In this document: positions 145-13,176 of the stretch, in pieces
Position numbering within the stretch: the stretch's first letter is position 1
How the letters are laid out: every line of letters starts with the position of its first letter
Source: a virus
Reading direction: 5' to 3' (one strand)
UHGV virus genome: UHGV-1809260
DNA: 16,081 bases
Notes under the pieces: model-generated
What the model saw: only the letters and a program-made list of their open reading frames with translations
What the model was told of the DNA's origin: nothing
Database searches by the model: none
Translations under genes and position numbers: made by a program

Positions 145-199
145 TTATGAATTCTGGTTAAAATCCATTCGATTATAAAAATGTATATCTCATGCTGTT

Positions 200-225
200 G
201 CCCGAACCCACTCGGGCTTTTTTTT
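200..225 (+). terminator. Rho-independent terminator (plus strand)
   Basis: Perfect hairpin gcccga-acccac-tcgggc (200-217) immediately followed by eight T (218-225). Confidence 0.6.
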
Positions 226-3411: not shown

Positions 3412-4227
3412 TCAGTGAACGGTATCGAGCAGCTTTAACAGCTCAGGGAATCGGGATTCGAAGAAATGCGGCTGCGTCTCGCGCGGATTTGCAGGACTGG
3501 TGATGTTCTTGCCGAACATGCAGCCTTTCGCTGTCAGCGACCAGAATTTTTTGATGTTGTTAATCGCGGTACGGCTGTATCGTTCGCGTTGTTCAACGAT
3601 CCCCAGCTTCGCCATCTGGTGATATGCCTGATTAGCCGTCAGGCGGATACCATACTGCTTCAGCAGTGCACTCAGCGACAGCGTAGGGCGGCTTGAACCA
3701 TCTGGCGCATCAGCAGGTGCATCAATGGCATAGATCGGCATAAGTTCAGGAAGACCAGCTACCTTTGATAATTTCTGGTATGCACCAAGTTTCGAGGAGT
3801 TTGACAGATTTAGAGTCTTTGCTGCTGATTCAAGCAGAATGACCCCGGATTTAATTTTGTCGGATGTGGTTTCTTCTGGTGATGAATTATGAAGCGCATC
3901 AAAAGTACGTATCACTTTTAAGCTGAATGCCGGGCTGATCCACATTGCATATGCATAGACCAGCTCTTTACAGACATACGTCCCACCATTGCGCCCCTGA
4001 ATGGTGATGACAGGAATACTACGGGAATCTCCCGTAGTTTCTTCTTCCAATAATTCCACAAGAGCCTTCGTTTCAGGACGACGCATAAACTCGTGAACTT
4101 CCAGCGAACGGGAGGAGCGATTCTCACCAGCGGCAAGAAGAGCAGCTTTCTGAAGGTCGTTAAGACAGTAGTTAGATTCGAAGTACTGGCGCACAGAAAC
4201 GCCATCAATTACAAGCAACTGATTCAT
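3412..4227 (-). CDS. KilA-N-like domain protein (antirepressor-like)
   Basis: ORF 3412-4239; preferred start is the ATG at 4227 (MNQLLVIDG...), preceded by GGAGA; the track start at 4239 is GTG. N-terminal segment with WISPAFSLKV resembles KilA-N/APSES-type DNA-binding domains (recollection only). Confidence 0.55.
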   Translation of the reverse strand: MNQLLVIDGVSVRQYFESNYCLNDLQKAALLAAGENRSSRSLEVHEFMRRPETKALVELLEEETTGDSRSIPVITIQGRNGGTYVCKELVYAYAMWISPAFSLKVIRTFDALHNSSPEETTSDKIKSGVILLESAAKTLNLSNSSKLGAYQKLSKVAGLPELMPIYAIDAPADAPDGSSRPTLSLSALLKQYGIRLTANQAYHQMAKLGIVEQRERYSRTAINNIKKFWSLTAKGCMFGKNITSPANPRETQPHFFESRFPELLKLLDTVH

Positions 4228-7528: not shown

Positions 7529-7749
7529 GCCACACCTCCCAGACGCTTAAACATTTTTCCGGAGCAAAAGGCTATAAGCGGCATACTGACGCGGTAATTA
7601 CGGCCCAGCGGTTCACAAATCACCTTCTGACATTCACGGTCAACCAGGCTAACACGTAGAACATGCCCTGCAGGCGTGGTGTACCACTGACCCGGACGAG
7701 GACAACGGAAAGTCTGATTGGTAAAACGTTTGAAAATATTCCGGATCAT
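7525..7749 (-). CDS. Hypothetical small protein (74 aa, four Cys)
   Basis: ATG at 7749 preceded by GGGGG with a 5-nt spacer; GTGA/ATGA overlaps with both neighbours. No family recognised. Confidence 0.55.
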   Translation of the reverse strand: MIRNIFKRFTNQTFRCPRPGQWYTTPAGHVLRVSLVDRECQKVICEPLGRNYRVSMPLIAFCSGKMFKRLGGVA

Positions 7750-8897
7750 TTGCGCCCCCTTGCCTCTGAAGGGTTCAGCGACAAATTTATGAGGCAGGCC
7801 AGCGCCGAAGCATCATTAATATAGTCATATAAGCTAACAGCCAGCGGAGATTCGGCTTTTGCCAACATAGGATAAAGCTGCTGCAGCCAGACCTGATGAA
7901 TTGATGAAATGTAGGAACAGAGAACGCTGGCGTTATGTGCAACGTCGCTCGGTACAGCAGGCTTTGAAAGCTGTTTCTCCATCTGGTTAAAGGCATTGAT
8001 GTATGCCTCTTTGAACTTGGCAGCACGTTTACCCGTGAAACCCATAGCAAGAAACGCAAAACCGTCGCGGGTGATTTGGTAACAAGGGAGTTTGCGGCCT
8101 GATGCGTCGGTGTATTCACTTAACACAAAAATGTGTTCAGTAAATTCAGCGGAACATTCGAGGTTTCTAATTCTATCTAAAACCCGCTCATGCCGTTTAG
8201 TAAAGTAATTAGCTACTGCAAGAGATGTGGTGACAACGCGACCATTGATAATCGTGATTTCAGGGTGAGATTGGGTTGGGAGAGTAGTCATGGTGACAGC
8301 CCCTATGTTGAATTCAATGAACTCACCACCAAGGCTTTCCACGACCATATAGGTGGTGAGACGTACAGGGGTGGAAATACCGGTCAACATAGAACCCGGC
8401 CCAACCGAAGTTGGCCCTGCACGCCCCACCATAATTTGGGCGTAACGATGCTCATGACACGAAAAAACCGCATGAGCGCGGTTGTGCTCTATATTGAATT
8501 TCGGGTTTCCACGCCCGGCACCCGCTTTATAAGGTGCCGGAACAGTGTAACGTCCCGGAATTGCAGAATCAATATGCTGGTGTTCCTTCACACTCAACAA
8601 AATCACGCCTGAATTTCCACAAAGGACTAAAGCACTCATGCGGGTAGTCTTTGCGAAGATAGATAACGCGCTGTGTTTCTGGCTCCCAACGAATAACATG
8701 GACATAAAGCCCTCTTCCGTCACGAAACCAGCGGTTAAGTTCCTGCACAACTCGCCCCCCACAGTCAGGTAAAGTTCTCTGTGGTTACTTACAGCCAGGT
8801 GATTTGGTAATCTGCATTCATGCCGTAACAACAGGTGTTCAGCGACGCTGACCACCAGCTGTTGCGACAAACGGTTATTTGCCGTTAAACTGTTCAT
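7746..8897 (-). CDS. Rha-family phage regulatory protein with an unusual ~200-aa N-terminal extension
   Basis: Residues ~203-305 (MTTLPTQSHPEITIINGRVVTTSLAVANYFTKRHERVLDRIRNLECSAEF...) match the Phage_pRha pattern. The frame stays open upstream to the ATG at 8897, which overlaps the upstream stop (ATGA) and has a GGAGA site. An internal ATG at 8291 also has an AGGGG site. Confidence 0.65.
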   Translation of the reverse strand: MNSLTANNRLSQQLVVSVAEHLLLRHECRLPNHLAVSNHRELYLTVGGELCRNLTAGFVTEEGFMSMLFVGSQKHSALSIFAKTTRMSALVLCGNSGVILLSVKEHQHIDSAIPGRYTVPAPYKAGAGRGNPKFNIEHNRAHAVFSCHEHRYAQIMVGRAGPTSVGPGSMLTGISTPVRLTTYMVVESLGGEFIEFNIGAVTMTTLPTQSHPEITIINGRVVTTSLAVANYFTKRHERVLDRIRNLECSAEFTEHIFVLSEYTDASGRKLPCYQITRDGFAFLAMGFTGKRAAKFKEAYINAFNQMEKQLSKPAVPSDVAHNASVLCSYISSIHQVWLQQLYPMLAKAESPLAVSLYDYINDASALACLINLSLNPSEARGRK

Positions 8898-9530: not shown

Positions 9531-9770
9531 TTAATAGCACTCAGGTAATCCATCATTTGGATTGGGGTAAATATCAGGACGCAGTTCATGAGGGGTCACG
9601 GACCAGTTTCCCAACTCACAAAGTTGTAAAACCCGTTCTGACGGGACTTGATTGTTAATTACCCAATTGGCGACGGATTGAGTGGACTTAAAACCAAAGC
9701 GACGGGCTACTTCAGATAAAGATTTTCCCGCAGCCTTTACTGCTTTCTCTGTGTAGTTTTGAGATGACAT
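9531..9770 (-). CDS. Cro-like (YdaS-like) HTH repressor
   Basis: 79 aa; AGGAG Shine-Dalgarno upstream of the ATG at 9770. HTH segment KSLSEVARRFGFKSTQSVANWV and a C-terminal HELRPDIYP motif. Divergent from the cI-like gene across an operator-containing intergenic region. Confidence 0.8.
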   Translation of the reverse strand: MSSQNYTEKAVKAAGKSLSEVARRFGFKSTQSVANWVINNQVPSERVLQLCELGNWSVTPHELRPDIYPNPNDGLPECY

Positions 9771-9840
9771 ACCTTTCTCCTCTGAAATTCAGAGGGATAA
9801 TGCTACTTAAAATAGCAAATTGCAACTACTTAAAATAGAA
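9771..9840. promoter_or_regulatory. Divergent PR/PRM-like promoter-operator region
   Basis: Two copies of CTACTTAAAATAG (9803-9815, 9826-9838) within 17-bp near-palindromes (TGCTACTTAAAATAGCA at 9801-9817). Separate palindrome CCTCTGAAATTCAGAGG at 9779-9795 overlapping the cro ribosome-binding site. Candidate PR on the minus strand: -35 TTGCAA (9820-9825), 17-bp spacer, -10 CATTAT (plus-strand coordinates 9797-9802). Confidence 0.5.
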
Positions 9841-10581
9841 ATGACTAGCGCGTGCGATGTGAGTAATCTTCTACCTATGGTAGAAGAACAGAAGTATCCA
9901 GATTTCGCCAAGAGACTAAACGAATTGATGACAATCAAAGGAATCTCTGTCACTCAACTCAAAAGTCTTGTGGGCGTTACATATGAAATGGCTCGTCGAT
10001 ACACAATCGGCGCAGCGAAGCCACGTGTCTCTGTCATGAGTAAACTTGCGTTGGCTCTTGGAGTATCAGCTTCATATCTAGAATATGGTGTTGGAGATAG
10101 AGAGGAATGTAAGGAAATGGCAAGCATCCCCAATCCAACAAAGCCCGATGTATACAGGATAGAAGTTTTGGATCTTAGCGTTAGCGCAGGACCTGGGACC
10201 TATATGCTTTCAGACTATGTTGATGTGCTCTACGCCATTGAGTTCACAACTGAACATGCCCGTTCTCTTTTCGGAAACCGTTCTCAGAATGATATAAAAG
10301 TTATGACGGTAAATGGAGATAGTATGTCCCCAACTCTTGTTTCCGGGGATCGATTGTTTGTCGACATTTCCGTTCGCCACTTCCAGACTGATGGAGTTTA
10401 CTCTTTCGTTTACGGTAAGACTTTCCATGTTAAACGTCTACAAATGCAAGGCAACAAACTAGCTGTTCTTTCGGATAACCCCGCCTATGAGAAATGGTAC
10501 ATTGATGAGAAGTCGCAAGATCAGCTTTATGTTATGGGTAAGGCACTGATTCATGAGTCGATTAAATATAATCGACTTTAA
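9841..10581 (+). CDS. cI-like prophage repressor (N-terminal HTH plus C-terminal S24 LexA-type autopeptidase)
   Basis: HTH segment ISVTQLKSLVGVTYEMARRYTIG; Ala-Gly cleavage site (SVSAGPG); catalytic Ser in VNGDSMSPT and Lys in FHVKRL. The track start at 9820 is TTG; I prefer the ATG at 9841, with 9877 as an alternative. Confidence 0.85.
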   Translation: MTSACDVSNLLPMVEEQKYPDFAKRLNELMTIKGISVTQLKSLVGVTYEMARRYTIGAAKPRVSVMSKLALALGVSASYLEYGVGDREECKEMASIPNPTKPDVYRIEVLDLSVSAGPGTYMLSDYVDVLYAIEFTTEHARSLFGNRSQNDIKVMTVNGDSMSPTLVSGDRLFVDISVRHFQTDGVYSFVYGKTFHVKRLQMQGNKLAVLSDNPAYEKWYIDEKSQDQLYVMGKALIHESIKYNRL

Positions 10582-10815
10582 TTAGGCATCTAGCAATCGT
10601 TAAAGCAAACGAGCACAGATGATAAAAGATAAGGATAGAAAATCTTTATACAAATTTTATTTGGCACATTGGTCCATAAAAATGGATTAACACTGAGCTG
10701 TTACCCTAAGTAAGAAAAGATAAAGACCATATGTTATCTTTGGGTGCGTTACTAACACAAAAAAAACCAAAATAAAACATAAATAATAGACAATTCTATA
10801 CAACAGGATACGATA

Positions 10816-11901
10816 ATGATTAATGAACGTACTGAAGCGACAGATGGGGTAGCAGATATGATTTCCACCAATACAAAATATTTAGTATGGAACAACAAAG
10901 GTGGTGTAGGAAAAACTTTTCTTACATATAATCTTGCCGTTGAGTTTGCTATATCTCATCCGGATCAAGATGTTGTGGTTATTGACTCATGCCCTCAATC
11001 AAACGTTTCAGAAATTATTCTTGGTGGCAATGGTACCGGGGAAGAAAATCTAAATAAATTGCGAGACAGAAATGTTACAATCGCAGGTTATATCAAGGAG
11101 CGTTTTAGCAAATCTCCTTTGTCTCGTTTAGGAAATGAATCTTCTTACTTTGTACGAGCCCATGATGTTAATGCAAAAATGCCAGAGAACTTATATATTC
11201 TTCCTGGTGATGTCGATCTTGATATCTGTTCACGCTTAATATCTCACATTGGCTCATCCCCAGTAAAAGAAGCATGGAAGAAAAGCCGATCTTTGCTGGT
11301 AGATCTAATAGCATCTTTTGAAGCCGATAAAAACATTTCTGACAGAGCAAAAACATTTTTTATTGATTGTAATCCAAGTTTTGCCAGCTACACAGAATTG
11401 GGAGTAGTCGCGGCAAATAGAATAATTATCCCTTGCACTGCCGATGCTGCATCAATTCGCGGAATAAAAAACCTTGTTAAACTTATTTATGGAGTGTCTA
11501 TTGACAAGTCAGAACAAGATGAAATGTTCTTAGATTTCAACAAAGAAGCAAAGCAAAACCTTATCGAACTACCTGAACTACACCTTTTCGTACAAAACCG
11601 CTCAAGAACTAATGAAAGTGATGCAGCAAAAGCATTCAAATCACATGCAGAAGAGATCAAAAGAATCACGGATGACCTGTTAAATACACATCCTCATCTG
11701 TTCACAAATGTGGCTACTTTCGAGAGAGTTCAAAATGTCAAAGATGGTAATACTCTTGCAGCAATAATAAACCATGAGGGATGCCCTTTAAGTAGGCTGC
11801 AGCATAAGAGTTACACTATCTATGGTATGGCGACCCAAGCTAATAGAGCACAAATTGAAGCACTAGAATCTGATGTTTCAACAGTAGTCAAGTGTCTGTA
11901 A
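10816..11901 (+). CDS. Orphan ParA/MinD/Soj-superfamily P-loop ATPase (361 aa) in an AT-rich island
   Basis: Deviant Walker A WNNKGGVGKT, Walker A'-like VVVIDSCPQSN and Walker B-like TFFIDCNPSF. About 130 extra C-terminal residues with no recognisable family. AGGA site upstream of the ATG. No ParB-like gene adjacent. Confidence 0.8.
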   Translation: MINERTEATDGVADMISTNTKYLVWNNKGGVGKTFLTYNLAVEFAISHPDQDVVVIDSCPQSNVSEIILGGNGTGEENLNKLRDRNVTIAGYIKERFSKSPLSRLGNESSYFVRAHDVNAKMPENLYILPGDVDLDICSRLISHIGSSPVKEAWKKSRSLLVDLIASFEADKNISDRAKTFFIDCNPSFASYTELGVVAANRIIIPCTADAASIRGIKNLVKLIYGVSIDKSEQDEMFLDFNKEAKQNLIELPELHLFVQNRSRTNESDAAKAFKSHAEEIKRITDDLLNTHPHLFTNVATFERVQNVKDGNTLAAIINHEGCPLSRLQHKSYTIYGMATQANRAQIEALESDVSTVVKCL

Positions 11902-11935
11902 TACAATAACCATGATTTAGAACGAACATAATTCT

Positions 11936-11962
11936 CGCCCGACCAACAGGTCGGGTTTTATA
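11936..11962 (+). terminator. Rho-independent terminator after the ParA-like gene
   Basis: Hairpin cccgacc-aaca-ggtcggg (11938-11955) followed by tttta. Confidence 0.6.
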
Positions 11963-12189
11963 CTCGTAGCCTGCTTAATAACACTGTTCCTGACCCGTTG
12001 TATCCATAGTTCCCACTATTTTCCCCAAAATTATTACTATCTAATTAACCTAATAATTAAACCAAAACAAAAGACACTCGATATTTTCTATACGTAACTA
12101 CACCACATCCCCCCATCTGTGAAAAACCTTTTAATTCATAACGTTATATAGAAAACTAAAAATTAAATACACACTTCTACTTTTTGTTG

Positions 12190-12218
12190 TTGATTTTTGC
12201 TACTTTTAGTAGCATCAT
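12190..12218 (+). promoter_or_regulatory. OL/PL-like operator-promoter
   Basis: Perfect 17-bp palindrome TGCTACTTTTAGTAGCA (12198-12214), closely related to the OR sites. Flanking TTGATT (12190-12195) and CATCAT (12213-12218) mirror the proposed PR -35/-10 with a near-identical 17-bp spacer. Confidence 0.4.
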
Positions 12219-12239
12219 TATCTGAACAAACAACAGACT

Positions 12240-12630
12240 GTTGTTAACGAAAGGTTGGTTGTAACACGGCGTATGGCACATGCGTCGTTAGCGGTCTGGG
12301 GACGTTAAAGGGGACAATCCACTCCTTGCTCGGGCAAACAAACCAGGTAGCCGGAATGTGCAAGTCAATGATGATGCTGATAAGACGCCTAACCAGCGTG
12401 GCGATTCGGTTTGACGCTTGGGAAGAGACCAGGGTGCAACGATGAGGGCATTTATGGAGCCGCGACAAAGTGTGGTGCCGTAACTGGCTAAGTGCTCTCA
12501 GCGTTGTGGTAATCCGCGAAATGGCGCGGCGGTAAGTATGGCGGGGTTACTCTTTCCCCGTTGAGGACACCGGATTGTCAGGTTGACCATACGCCTGAGT
12601 GACAACCCCACCACAACAGCCACTGCTTTG
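12240..12630 (+). other. Long GC-rich untranslated leader (possible structured RNA)
   Basis: No plus-strand ORF longer than 25 codons between OL/PL and the internal terminator; composition contrasts sharply with the AT-rich island upstream. The listed ORFs crossing it are minus-strand or frame read-through. Confidence 0.35.
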
Positions 12631-12678
12631 GCGGTACCAGTTTGTACACTTGCTTCCGGCTGGTACCGCTCTTTTTAC
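12631..12678 (+). terminator. Strong intrinsic terminator / attenuator inside the PL leader
   Basis: Perfect 10-bp stem gcggtaccag ... ctggtaccgc (12631-12640 / 12660-12669) with a 19-nt loop, followed by tctttttac. Confidence 0.55.
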
Positions 12679-12813
12679 AAAACAGAGAAGAGCATCACCG
12701 GACGACGGGCTCATAACCCAATCCATCCGGGCGGCTGCCACCGCAGGTGTTCTTCTCTGTTTTGTGGAGAAACCAACCGACCTTTCAGGGTCGATATGAT
12801 GAGGAGCAGCAAA

Positions 12814-13176
12814 ATGGCTAGCGAACGCAGTACTGATGTGCAGGCATTTATCGGGGAGCTGGACGGCGGCGTATTTGAAACCAAAATCGGCGCAGTTCTC
12901 AGTGAAGTCGCTTCCGGTGTGATGAACACGAAAACCAAAGGTAAGGTCTCACTCAACCTGGAAATCGAACCATTTGATGAGAACCGTGTGAAAATCAAAC
13001 ACAAACTCTCATATGTTCGCCCGACTAACCGCGGCAAAATTTCCGAAGAAGACACCACCGAAACGCCGATGTATGTCAATCGCGGTGGTCGCCTGACTAT
13101 TCTGCAGGAAGACCAGGGACAATTACTGACTCTTGCCGGTGAACCTGACGGAAAACTACGCGCAGCAGGTCATTAA
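12814..13176 (+). CDS. Hypothetical early protein (120 aa), YfdP-like
   Basis: ATG at 12814 preceded by AGGAG with a 7-nt spacer (MASERSTDVQAFIGELDGG...). The longer listed ORF from 12583 is a read-through extension across the terminator. Size and position resemble CPS-53-type yfdP (recollection). Confidence 0.65.
   Translation: MASERSTDVQAFIGELDGGVFETKIGAVLSEVASGVMNTKTKGKVSLNLEIEPFDENRVKIKHKLSYVRPTNRGKISEEDTTETPMYVNRGGRLTILQEDQGQLLTLAGEPDGKLRAAGH

Follow-up and report, generated by a model that had tools for sequence, protein, structure and literature searches.

What do the repeats and palindromes between two divergent phage switch genes do, and do they act as DNA or as RNA? The question is raised by positions 9771–9840 of a 16,081-nt stretch of the virus genome UHGV-1809260 (the window, to which all coordinates refer, one strand being read 5′ to 3′), which is part of a lambdoid prophage of Escherichia coli. 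The interval separates a leftward cro-like gene from a rightward cI-like repressor gene. The original prediction treated it as a right operator (OR) region with two related sites and a candidate early promoter, PR, plus a distinct palindrome over the cro ribosome-binding site that might bind Cro or another regulator or serve as a translational operator. Comparison with related loci makes it probable that 9771–9840 controls a lambda-type immunity module as its OR/PR region, combining repressor operators with a hairpin that pairs the Shine–Dalgarno (SD) sequence of cro with an anti-SD sequence. The features on which the argument first depends are as follows.

9531–9770, minus strand: cro-like gene, 79 amino acids, Pfam YdaS/HTH_3 (YdaS_toxin/HTH_3), with the helix QSVANW invariant in relatives
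9841–10581, plus strand: open reading frame (ORF) of the cI-like repressor, 246 amino acids from ATG 9841, Pfam HTH_3 and Peptidase_S24 (2.3e-16)
9801–9817, no strand: operator O1, TGCTACTTAAAATAGCA, in the PR spacer, 7 of 8 symmetric pairs, 20.8 bits
9824–9840, no strand: operator O2, AACTACTTAAAATAGAA, 23 bp from O1 and just upstream of the −35, 5 of 8 symmetric pairs, 15.8 bits
9820–9825, minus strand: PR −35, TTGCAA, with TTGnnn in 25 of 26 relatives
9797–9802, minus strand: PR −10, CATTAT, with CATTAT in 18 and CATCAT in 6 of 26 unique leaders

The 13-mer CTACTTAAAATAG occurs exactly twice in the window, at 9803–9815 and 9826–9838, and the copies lie 23 bp apart from start to start between the divergent cro and cI starts, just as had been predicted. 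Each copy sits in a 17-mer; the earlier description of both 17-mers as near-palindromes suits O1 and is generous for O2, given its lower count of symmetric pairs. The operator family is best defined as CTAC-N5-GTAG, with the 17-mer TGCTACTnnnAGTAGCA. The window departs from this symmetry by an A at 9814 and again at 9837; in relatives found by BLAST, this fourth-from-last operator A is often a G, which restores the symmetry (CTACTTAAAGTAG). A weight matrix trained solely on O1 sites from other contigs returned five sites in the window, at 12198, 9801, 9869, 9824 and 12175 (25.7, 20.8, 16.2, 15.8 and 9.2 bits, respectively), all of them at OR or at a left operator (OL) considered below. The sixth-best score in the window was 1.7 bits, and the 95th percentile of the maxima from shuffled windows was 14.3 bits.

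More than 80 diverged relatives retain the operator core together with the cI helix YEMARRYT and the Cro helix QSVANW. As (V/I)(T/S)YEM(A/V)RRY(T/S), the cI helix is conserved in 84 unique proteins, the remainder of which diverges; as QSV(A/F)NW, the Cro helix is conserved except in a few divergent Cro sequences, and here too the remainder of the protein diverges. The invariant operator core matches the conserved recognition helices of cI and Cro. On these sequence comparisons the identification of O1 and O2 as operators for the cI-like repressor is well supported, with binding itself predicted, and the Cro-like protein probably recognises both sites as well. The collection of phage isolates, when queried with the Cro protein, the cI N-terminal domain and the relatives' OR DNA, yielded no close relative; cI matched no sequence in the PDB; and a literature search with the operator strings returned nothing relevant. 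A contig search with the cI protein gave only three heteroimmune loci with other operators and was uninformative on these sites. The e14 (ymfK/ymfT) immunity type was also considered, and was rejected because the e14 palindromes differ, being GTAC-based.

O1 fills the 17-bp spacer of PR, whose predicted start point (+1) is G9790 or A9789. A promoter scan left PR unlisted because its 8 of 12 consensus matches fall one below the scan threshold. Of the 26 unique leaders of group A, the subgroup that includes the window, 25 have a TTGnnn −35 and 24 a −10 of CATTAT or CATCAT. A further set of relatives, group B (L010, L090, L094, L072 and others), has TTGnnn, a 17-bp spacer and TAGTAT, with both hexamers displaced by 3 bp; the promoter register of the window's group lies 3 bp further from O2 and O1, and group B uses the operator ends. 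That both hexamers shift by the same 3 bp is consistent with a real promoter. Other candidates for a cro promoter far enough upstream to bring the 5′ arm of the hairpin into the transcript were rejected: TAGCAT is separated from TTGCAA by only 14 bp, its partner at 17 bp being a poor −35 (TAGTTG), and TATTTT within O1 or O2 is without a usable −35.

The second line of evidence for both operators and promoter lies 2.4 kb to the right, in a module that the original prediction did not contain.

12175–12191, no strand: operator OL2, TTCTACTTTTTGTTGTT, with a degenerate right half, containing CTACTT, 23 bp from OL1, 9.2 bits
12198–12214, no strand: operator OL1, TGCTACTTTTAGTAGCA, with perfect 7-bp arms, the top-scoring site of the window at 25.7 bits
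12190–12218, plus strand: candidate promoter PL, −35 TTGATT (12190–12195), 17-bp spacer, −10 CATCAT (12213–12218)

OL1 was located by a mismatch search. On the minus strand OR reads TTCTATTTTAAGTAG TTGCAA TTTG CTATTTTAAGTAG CATTAT, and on the plus strand OL reads TTCTACTTTTTGTTG TTGATT TTTG CTACTTTTAGTAG CATCAT; the order O2, −35, O1, −10 is common to the two, and both operator pairs are spaced by 23 bp. On this reading the two regions are paralogous. An OL module is found in every E. coli relative recovered by BLAST (65–99% identity), whatever accessory genes follow cI. The OL–OR distance is as in lambda, which makes looping between the two conceivable. Conservation and the PL paralogue together support PR (TTGCAA, 17 bp, CATTAT) as it was first placed, with one operator in its spacer, and the same comparisons bear out an OR-type region with two operator sites. 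The window has a divergent repressor (helix–turn–helix (HTH) plus LexA-like S24 autopeptidase) and small Cro-type HTH gene, several related, partly symmetric operators between them that overlap an early promoter, and, beyond the repressor gene, another operator cluster that has an early promoter to itself, all of which mark lambdoid phages. By every feature that can be tested in sequence, this is an ordinary lambdoid switch of the lambda type, with a new operator/repressor specificity.

Some features near PL were noted in passing. The predicted PL leader opens with an 8-1-8 palindrome, AACAACAG-A-CTGTTGTT (12229–12245), and positions 12240–12800 form about 570 bp of G+C-rich DNA with no convincing ORF ahead of a yfdP-like gene (ATG 12815). 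In many relatives the leader is instead a conserved CAACAGCGAACAGGCAGGACGCCCAC, possibly a nut- or put-like site.

The palindrome over the cro ribosome-binding site behaves differently from the operators, and two further features are needed to discuss it.

9777–9781, minus strand: cro SD sequence, AGGAG, 6 nt ahead of the ATG, with 3 of its 5 nt in the 3′ arm of the hairpin
9776–9797, minus strand: inverted repeat P0 (core 9779–9795), folding as cro-sense RNA at −10.7 kcal/mol, in which an anti-SD CCUC pairs with the cro SD

The core palindrome CCTCTGAAATTCAGAGG (CCTCTGAA-A-TTCAGAGG) is present as originally described, with perfect 8-bp arms around one central base and a 3-nt overlap with the SD, and occurs once in the window (expected 0.02). 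Read as DNA, it would lie at −5 to +12 of PR, where Cro or a third regulator, of phage or host, could block initiation; its perfect 8-bp symmetry over the predicted start favours such an operator, as does the retention of an outer CCTCT-N7-AGAGG in several variants of the closest Cro subgroup. Among relatives, the same interval between −10 and cro SD holds palindromes with unrelated arms, including CCTCTAC/GTAGAGG, CCTGTGA/TCACAGG, CCTATGA/TCATAGG, CCTTGG/CCAAGG, CCCTTTTGTGG/CTATAGGAGGG and others. Arm length varies, the hairpin loops measure 3–12 nt, and the arm spacing overall runs from 1 to 12 nt, which does not suit one family of dimeric binders. One arm always holds the SD and the other a CCU-type anti-SD. 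All this turnover takes place while the recognition helices of Cro and cI stay invariant. A protein operator would have a conserved or helix-covarying sequence and a fixed half-site spacing, neither of which is found here.

What is kept is the pairing. RNAalifold recorded compensatory changes in three of six consensus pairs. When 24 distinct sequences were aligned to a covariance model, 86.8% of cells paired (shuffles, 77.8%) and covariation scored 0.315, compared with 0.178 in shuffles (0 of 500 reached the observed value) and 0.09–0.16 with slid partners. A strand-neutral stem search counted 186 Watson–Crick pairs; of the G-U pairs, 28 were in the cro sense and 3 in the other. Shared ancestry inflates these wobble counts, and we put the independent events at about 12 against 3. 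A structured RNA behaves in this way, its pairing surviving compensatory and wobble substitutions on the strand that is transcribed, and the arm turnover, the cro-sense G-U pairs and the division of the arms into SD and anti-SD point to a cro-sense RNA hairpin rather than an operator. The 9779–9795 palindrome is thus probably not a protein operator: the suggestion that it might be a site for Cro or another regulator did not survive the comparison, and we regard it as improbable.

Nor do these features look like accidents of AT-rich DNA between genes, devoid of regulatory function. In favour of chance, about one perfect 8-bp inverted repeat is expected in 16 kb; the window has 9 distinct ones, against 1.6 in shuffles, and two of them lie within 110 bp here. 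Set against a chance origin are the exact 13-mer repeat, five matrix hits confined to OR and OL, the conservation of the features across 206 E. coli genomes and many diverged contigs, and the covariation of the hairpin. The comparative data effectively refute chance, which we consider scarcely credible as an explanation.

Other identities for the palindrome were tried. A LexA box and sites for CRP, Fur or IHF were rejected by inspection, there being no consensus match, and an intrinsic terminator was rejected as no U-run follows on either strand. As a separate observation, CCTCTGAAATTCAGAGG is also present in unrelated viral contigs (L013, L015–L017, L027, L029, L041 and L044), flanked by A-runs and T-runs, where it forms the stem of a bidirectional intrinsic terminator. 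Searches of Rfam with the hairpins and the PL leader gave no family at gathering thresholds or at E ≤ 1 over 9700–12900.

If the palindrome is an RNA hairpin, the position of its 5′ arm decides which transcripts can form it. In 25 of the 26 unique leaders the arm starts 0–2 nt after the −10 hexamer or inside it, and in 25 of the 26 it ends 6–11 nt after the −10 (overall range −4 to +11 nt after the −10); in several relatives the −10 itself is paired. The arm therefore occupies the PR discriminator, upstream of the predicted transcription start. Lying between the −10 and the predicted +1, it would be missing from a PR-initiated transcript, so that with a canonical start the hairpin would form only in leftward transcripts begun upstream of PR. 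RNA from G9790 is predicted to be unstructured (−0.6 kcal/mol). Across group A, mean predicted SD accessibility was 0.51 in the native RNA, 0.11 in read-through RNA and 0.25 in a control with shuffled upstream sequence, which for the family taken together supports the hiding of the SD in read-through RNA. Of the original suggestions for the palindrome, that of a translational element fits best, in the form of an anti-SD/SD hairpin, with the complication that its 5′ arm lies upstream of the predicted PR start.

The main rival is that the palindrome is an ordinary 5′-leader hairpin of the PR cro mRNA, the real start being upstream of the predicted one and the operators working as described above. 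The hairpin would then constitutively damp cro translation or stabilise the 5′ end of the mRNA. The covariation and the cro-sense wobble pairs, together with the SD in the 3′ arm, suit this equally, and leader hairpins that sequester an SD are common, such as the stem of IS200 tnpA (PMC4513863). What counts against it is the placement of the 5′ arm with respect to the −10 in 25 of the 26 leaders and the inclusion of the −10 in the pairing in several relatives. A sigma-70 start about 7 nt after the −10 would leave the arm untranscribed, and an alternative promoter upstream is not evident. On balance we consider an ordinary leader hairpin rather unlikely.

We instead propose, tentatively, that the inverted repeat is a promoter-coupled translational insulator, its 5′ arm being the PR discriminator, such that only transcripts started at PR would yield Cro. 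In the lysogen, repressor at O1, in the PR spacer, and at O2, upstream of the −35, would shut off leftward PR, and the OL pair (12175–12214) would shut off rightward PL likewise. When PR fires, the cro mRNA would lack the 5′ arm and be translatable. Leftward RNA begun further upstream and running across the repressed promoter would fold up and mask the cro SD, so that Cro synthesis would be tied strictly to PR firing, following the logic of fold-back inhibition in IS10 and IS50. Stray leftward transcription, whether from morons or from late read-around on a circular genome, may in the same tentative scheme produce only untranslatable cro RNA.

Several observations weigh against this proposal or its generality, in addition to the shared ancestry behind the wobble counts. 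The PR start is predicted, and a start upstream of 9797 would make the hairpin no more than a stretch of the cro leader. A search for a promoter that could supply the leftward read-through found none. In the window only 3 of the 5 SD bases lie in the stem, the SD accessibility of its own read-through RNA is 0.24 compared with 0.20 for shuffled upstream sequence, so that masking is not stronger than in the control, the z-score of the hairpin is a modest −2.0, and the plus strand folds equally well. Group B, with the −10 TAGTAT, has a weak or absent hairpin, and a strong anti-SD hairpin is found only in the window's group. On the operator side, pattern scans of viral contigs yielded more than 100 further loci with the same OR and OL modules, but imposed CTAC/GTAG and a 10-bp gap, so that the conservation of core and spacing at those loci is partly circular; the independent evidence for both is the set of loci found by BLAST.

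A similar layout was noted in a heteroimmune phage. In e14 (E. coli K-12, L143 at about 3490–3520) the cro-like ymfT has an 8-bp inverted repeat, ATATGTAC...GTACATAT, one arm of which lies over a −10-like TAATAT and the other between SD and ATG. The arrangement may recur in other immunity types, although the e14 repeat could equally be a GTAC-type operator.

On the other side of the operators, the question becomes how the cI-like gene is expressed, for which a second feature set is relevant.

9807–9836, plus strand: putative promoter for cI maintenance (TTAAAA, 18 bp, TAAAAT) lying within O1 and O2, with a predicted start at about 9843
9867–9887, plus strand: palindrome P3, TCTTCTACC TAT GGTAGAAGA, with perfect 9-bp arms and a CTAC-N5-GTAG core, 16.2 bits, enclosing ATG 9877

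The conserved ...AAAATAG half of O2 doubles as a plus-strand −10, TAAAAT (9831–9836), of which nA(A/T)AAT is kept in relatives. The pair TTAAAA/TAAAAT is the only conserved candidate for a cI promoter, and O1 would be centred near −34 of it, a geometry unlike that of lambda; its use for maintenance is a prediction. The start codon is similarly provisional. PGAP places the start of cI at ATG 9877, and the ORF is also given from 9820 (9820/9841–10581). Between ATG 9841 and ATG 9877 there are 12 codons, a stop-free stretch of constant length in about 50 unique diverged relatives, and the AAATGAC right after O2 and the candidate −10 is invariant, which suggests that the protein may start at 9841. 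However, ATG 9841 is only 5 nt from the candidate −10, and a canonical start at about 9843 would cut it off. No Shine–Dalgarno sequence precedes any of the candidate starts. Within this gene family PGAP uses three different cI start codons (window candidates 9820, 9841 and 9877; L010, 4301; L012, 4288), which is an annotation issue in its own right. A plus-strand mini-ORF of 12 codons, from ATG 9800 to TAG 9838, has GAGGG ahead of it and ends 2 nt before ATG 9841; its coupling into cI was rejected since its length is not conserved, many relatives stopping after 3–6 codons, and it is probably fortuitous.

P3, which like the OL pair was absent from the original prediction, may be a third operator, an mRNA hairpin, or both. 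It is quite possible that it is a true O3, bound by cI or preferentially by Cro and throttling cI as OR3 does in lambda, but from a position about +35 of the cI promoter. Its core is that of the operator family, it scores above O2, and its synonymous positions are invariant even between highly diverged cI genes. In some relatives, though, P3 has shifted symmetrically to CCAC-N5-GTGG, while O1 and OL keep CTAC/GTAG. That change passes through a plus-sense U-G intermediate, which fits an mRNA hairpin with ATG 9877 in its loop; the predicted fold has −11.6 kcal/mol and a z-score of −3.8. The two readings of P3 are mutually compatible. At the extreme end of the cI coding sequence (stop codon 10579–10581) there is in addition a perfect 8-bp inverted repeat, GTCGATTA-AATA-TAATCGAC (10557–10576), with no T-run behind it.

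The remaining genes fit a lambdoid setting. The cI-like protein has the HTH helix VTYEMARRYT, an Ala-Gly site (SAGPG), GDSM and VKRL, of which the last three would be the marks of RecA-stimulated self-cleavage in a cI-like repressor. On the minus strand past cro come a CII-like gene (Pfam CP76 domain) and then an Ash/Rha antirepressor-type gene. Rightward, the cI transcription unit continues as follows.

10816–11901, plus strand: ParA-family ATPase gene, next after the cI-like gene
11937–11956, plus strand: terminator-like hairpin behind the ParA-like gene, closing the cI transcription unit ahead of OL/PL

The ParA-family gene sits between cI and OL, where lambda has rexAB; relatives have unrelated small genes in this position, which marks it as a moron slot. 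The 1.1-kb immunity segment is present at ≥80% identity in 206 of 5426 complete E. coli genomes (about 4%). In strain STEC17-183 it lies inside a prophage adjoining yecE/cmoA, surrounded by Q, a replicative helicase, a YmfL (CII-like) gene, xis and int; this strain and O145:H28 RM12761 match the region at 99.6–99.8% identity.

Rfam matches elsewhere in the window were also recorded. Inside the long 'Ash/Rha' ORF (7746–8897) there are a C4 antisense RNA (82 bits; 8349–8436, minus strand) and isrK (62 bits; 8461–8537, minus strand), which points to an antirepressor module of the P1/P7 type, under c4 control, within the PR operon; the annotated ash-family coding sequence may thus be non-coding RNA in its 5′ part. 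Near the left end of the window are a match to the small RNA AsxR (170–222, plus strand) and two tandem matches to the small RNA STnc100 (226–435 and 713–918, both minus strand), each STnc100 copy containing the terminator-like repeat AGCCCCTCCGGAGAGGGGCT.

The immunity specificity defined here (CTAC-N5-GTAG, YEMARRYT, QSVANW) is widespread in E. coli and in enterobacterial viral contigs, and absent from characterised phage isolates. With the operators known, homo-immunity between prophages becomes predictable, and experiments with reporters or induction can be designed. If confirmed, the promoter-coupled anti-SD hairpin would be a modest new variation. It would add a simple insulation mechanism to the classic model of a genetic switch, and with it a hitherto undescribed safeguard of stable lambdoid lysogeny in an immunity family widespread among enterobacteria, possibly also in others, as the similar layout at e14 ymfT might indicate.

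The closest known system is the immunity region of lambda, in which OR/PR–PRM and OL/PL flank cI and act together with Cro. The window shares with it the divergent cro and cI genes, 17-bp partly symmetric operators that overlap PR and PL, and the spacing of adjacent operators, 23 bp from centre to centre here and 23–24 bp in lambda. Both have cI, an accessory gene (ParA-like here, rexAB in lambda), a terminator and then OL/PL, here as the mirror image, with an OL–OR distance of about 2.4 kb. An HTH and S24 repressor with Ala-Gly, Ser and Lys, a CII-like gene after cro and a Q antiterminator downstream are likewise common to the two. The operators differ in sequence, being CTAC-N5-GTAG here, and in number, with two clear sites per end rather than three. 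They differ too in position: the lambda sites cover the −10 and −35, but here O1 occupies the promoter spacer and O2 is placed upstream of the −35. O1 and O2 contain the candidate cI promoter, and lambda-style activation from a site at −42 is not evident. The third palindrome in the start of the cI coding sequence and the covarying hairpin over the cro SD also set the window apart.

Lambda PRM yields a leaderless cI mRNA. The window resembles this in having AAATGAC directly after the candidate −10 and no Shine–Dalgarno sequence before either candidate start; it differs in that ATG 9841 is 5 nt from the candidate −10 and the alternative, ATG 9877, is in a hairpin loop.

For the cro hairpin the nearest parallel is with IS10 and IS50, where fold-back inhibition of transposase translation on read-through transcripts was reportedly described by Davis, Simons and Kleckner in 1985 (Cell 43:379) and by Krebs and Reznikoff in 1986. 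In common with those elements, one arm of the hairpin precedes the predicted start of the gene's own transcript and its partner covers the ribosome-binding site, so that the occluding hairpin would be possible only in transcripts entering from outside. The gene that would be guarded here is the phage switch gene cro rather than a transposase, and the 5′ arm coincides with the promoter discriminator.

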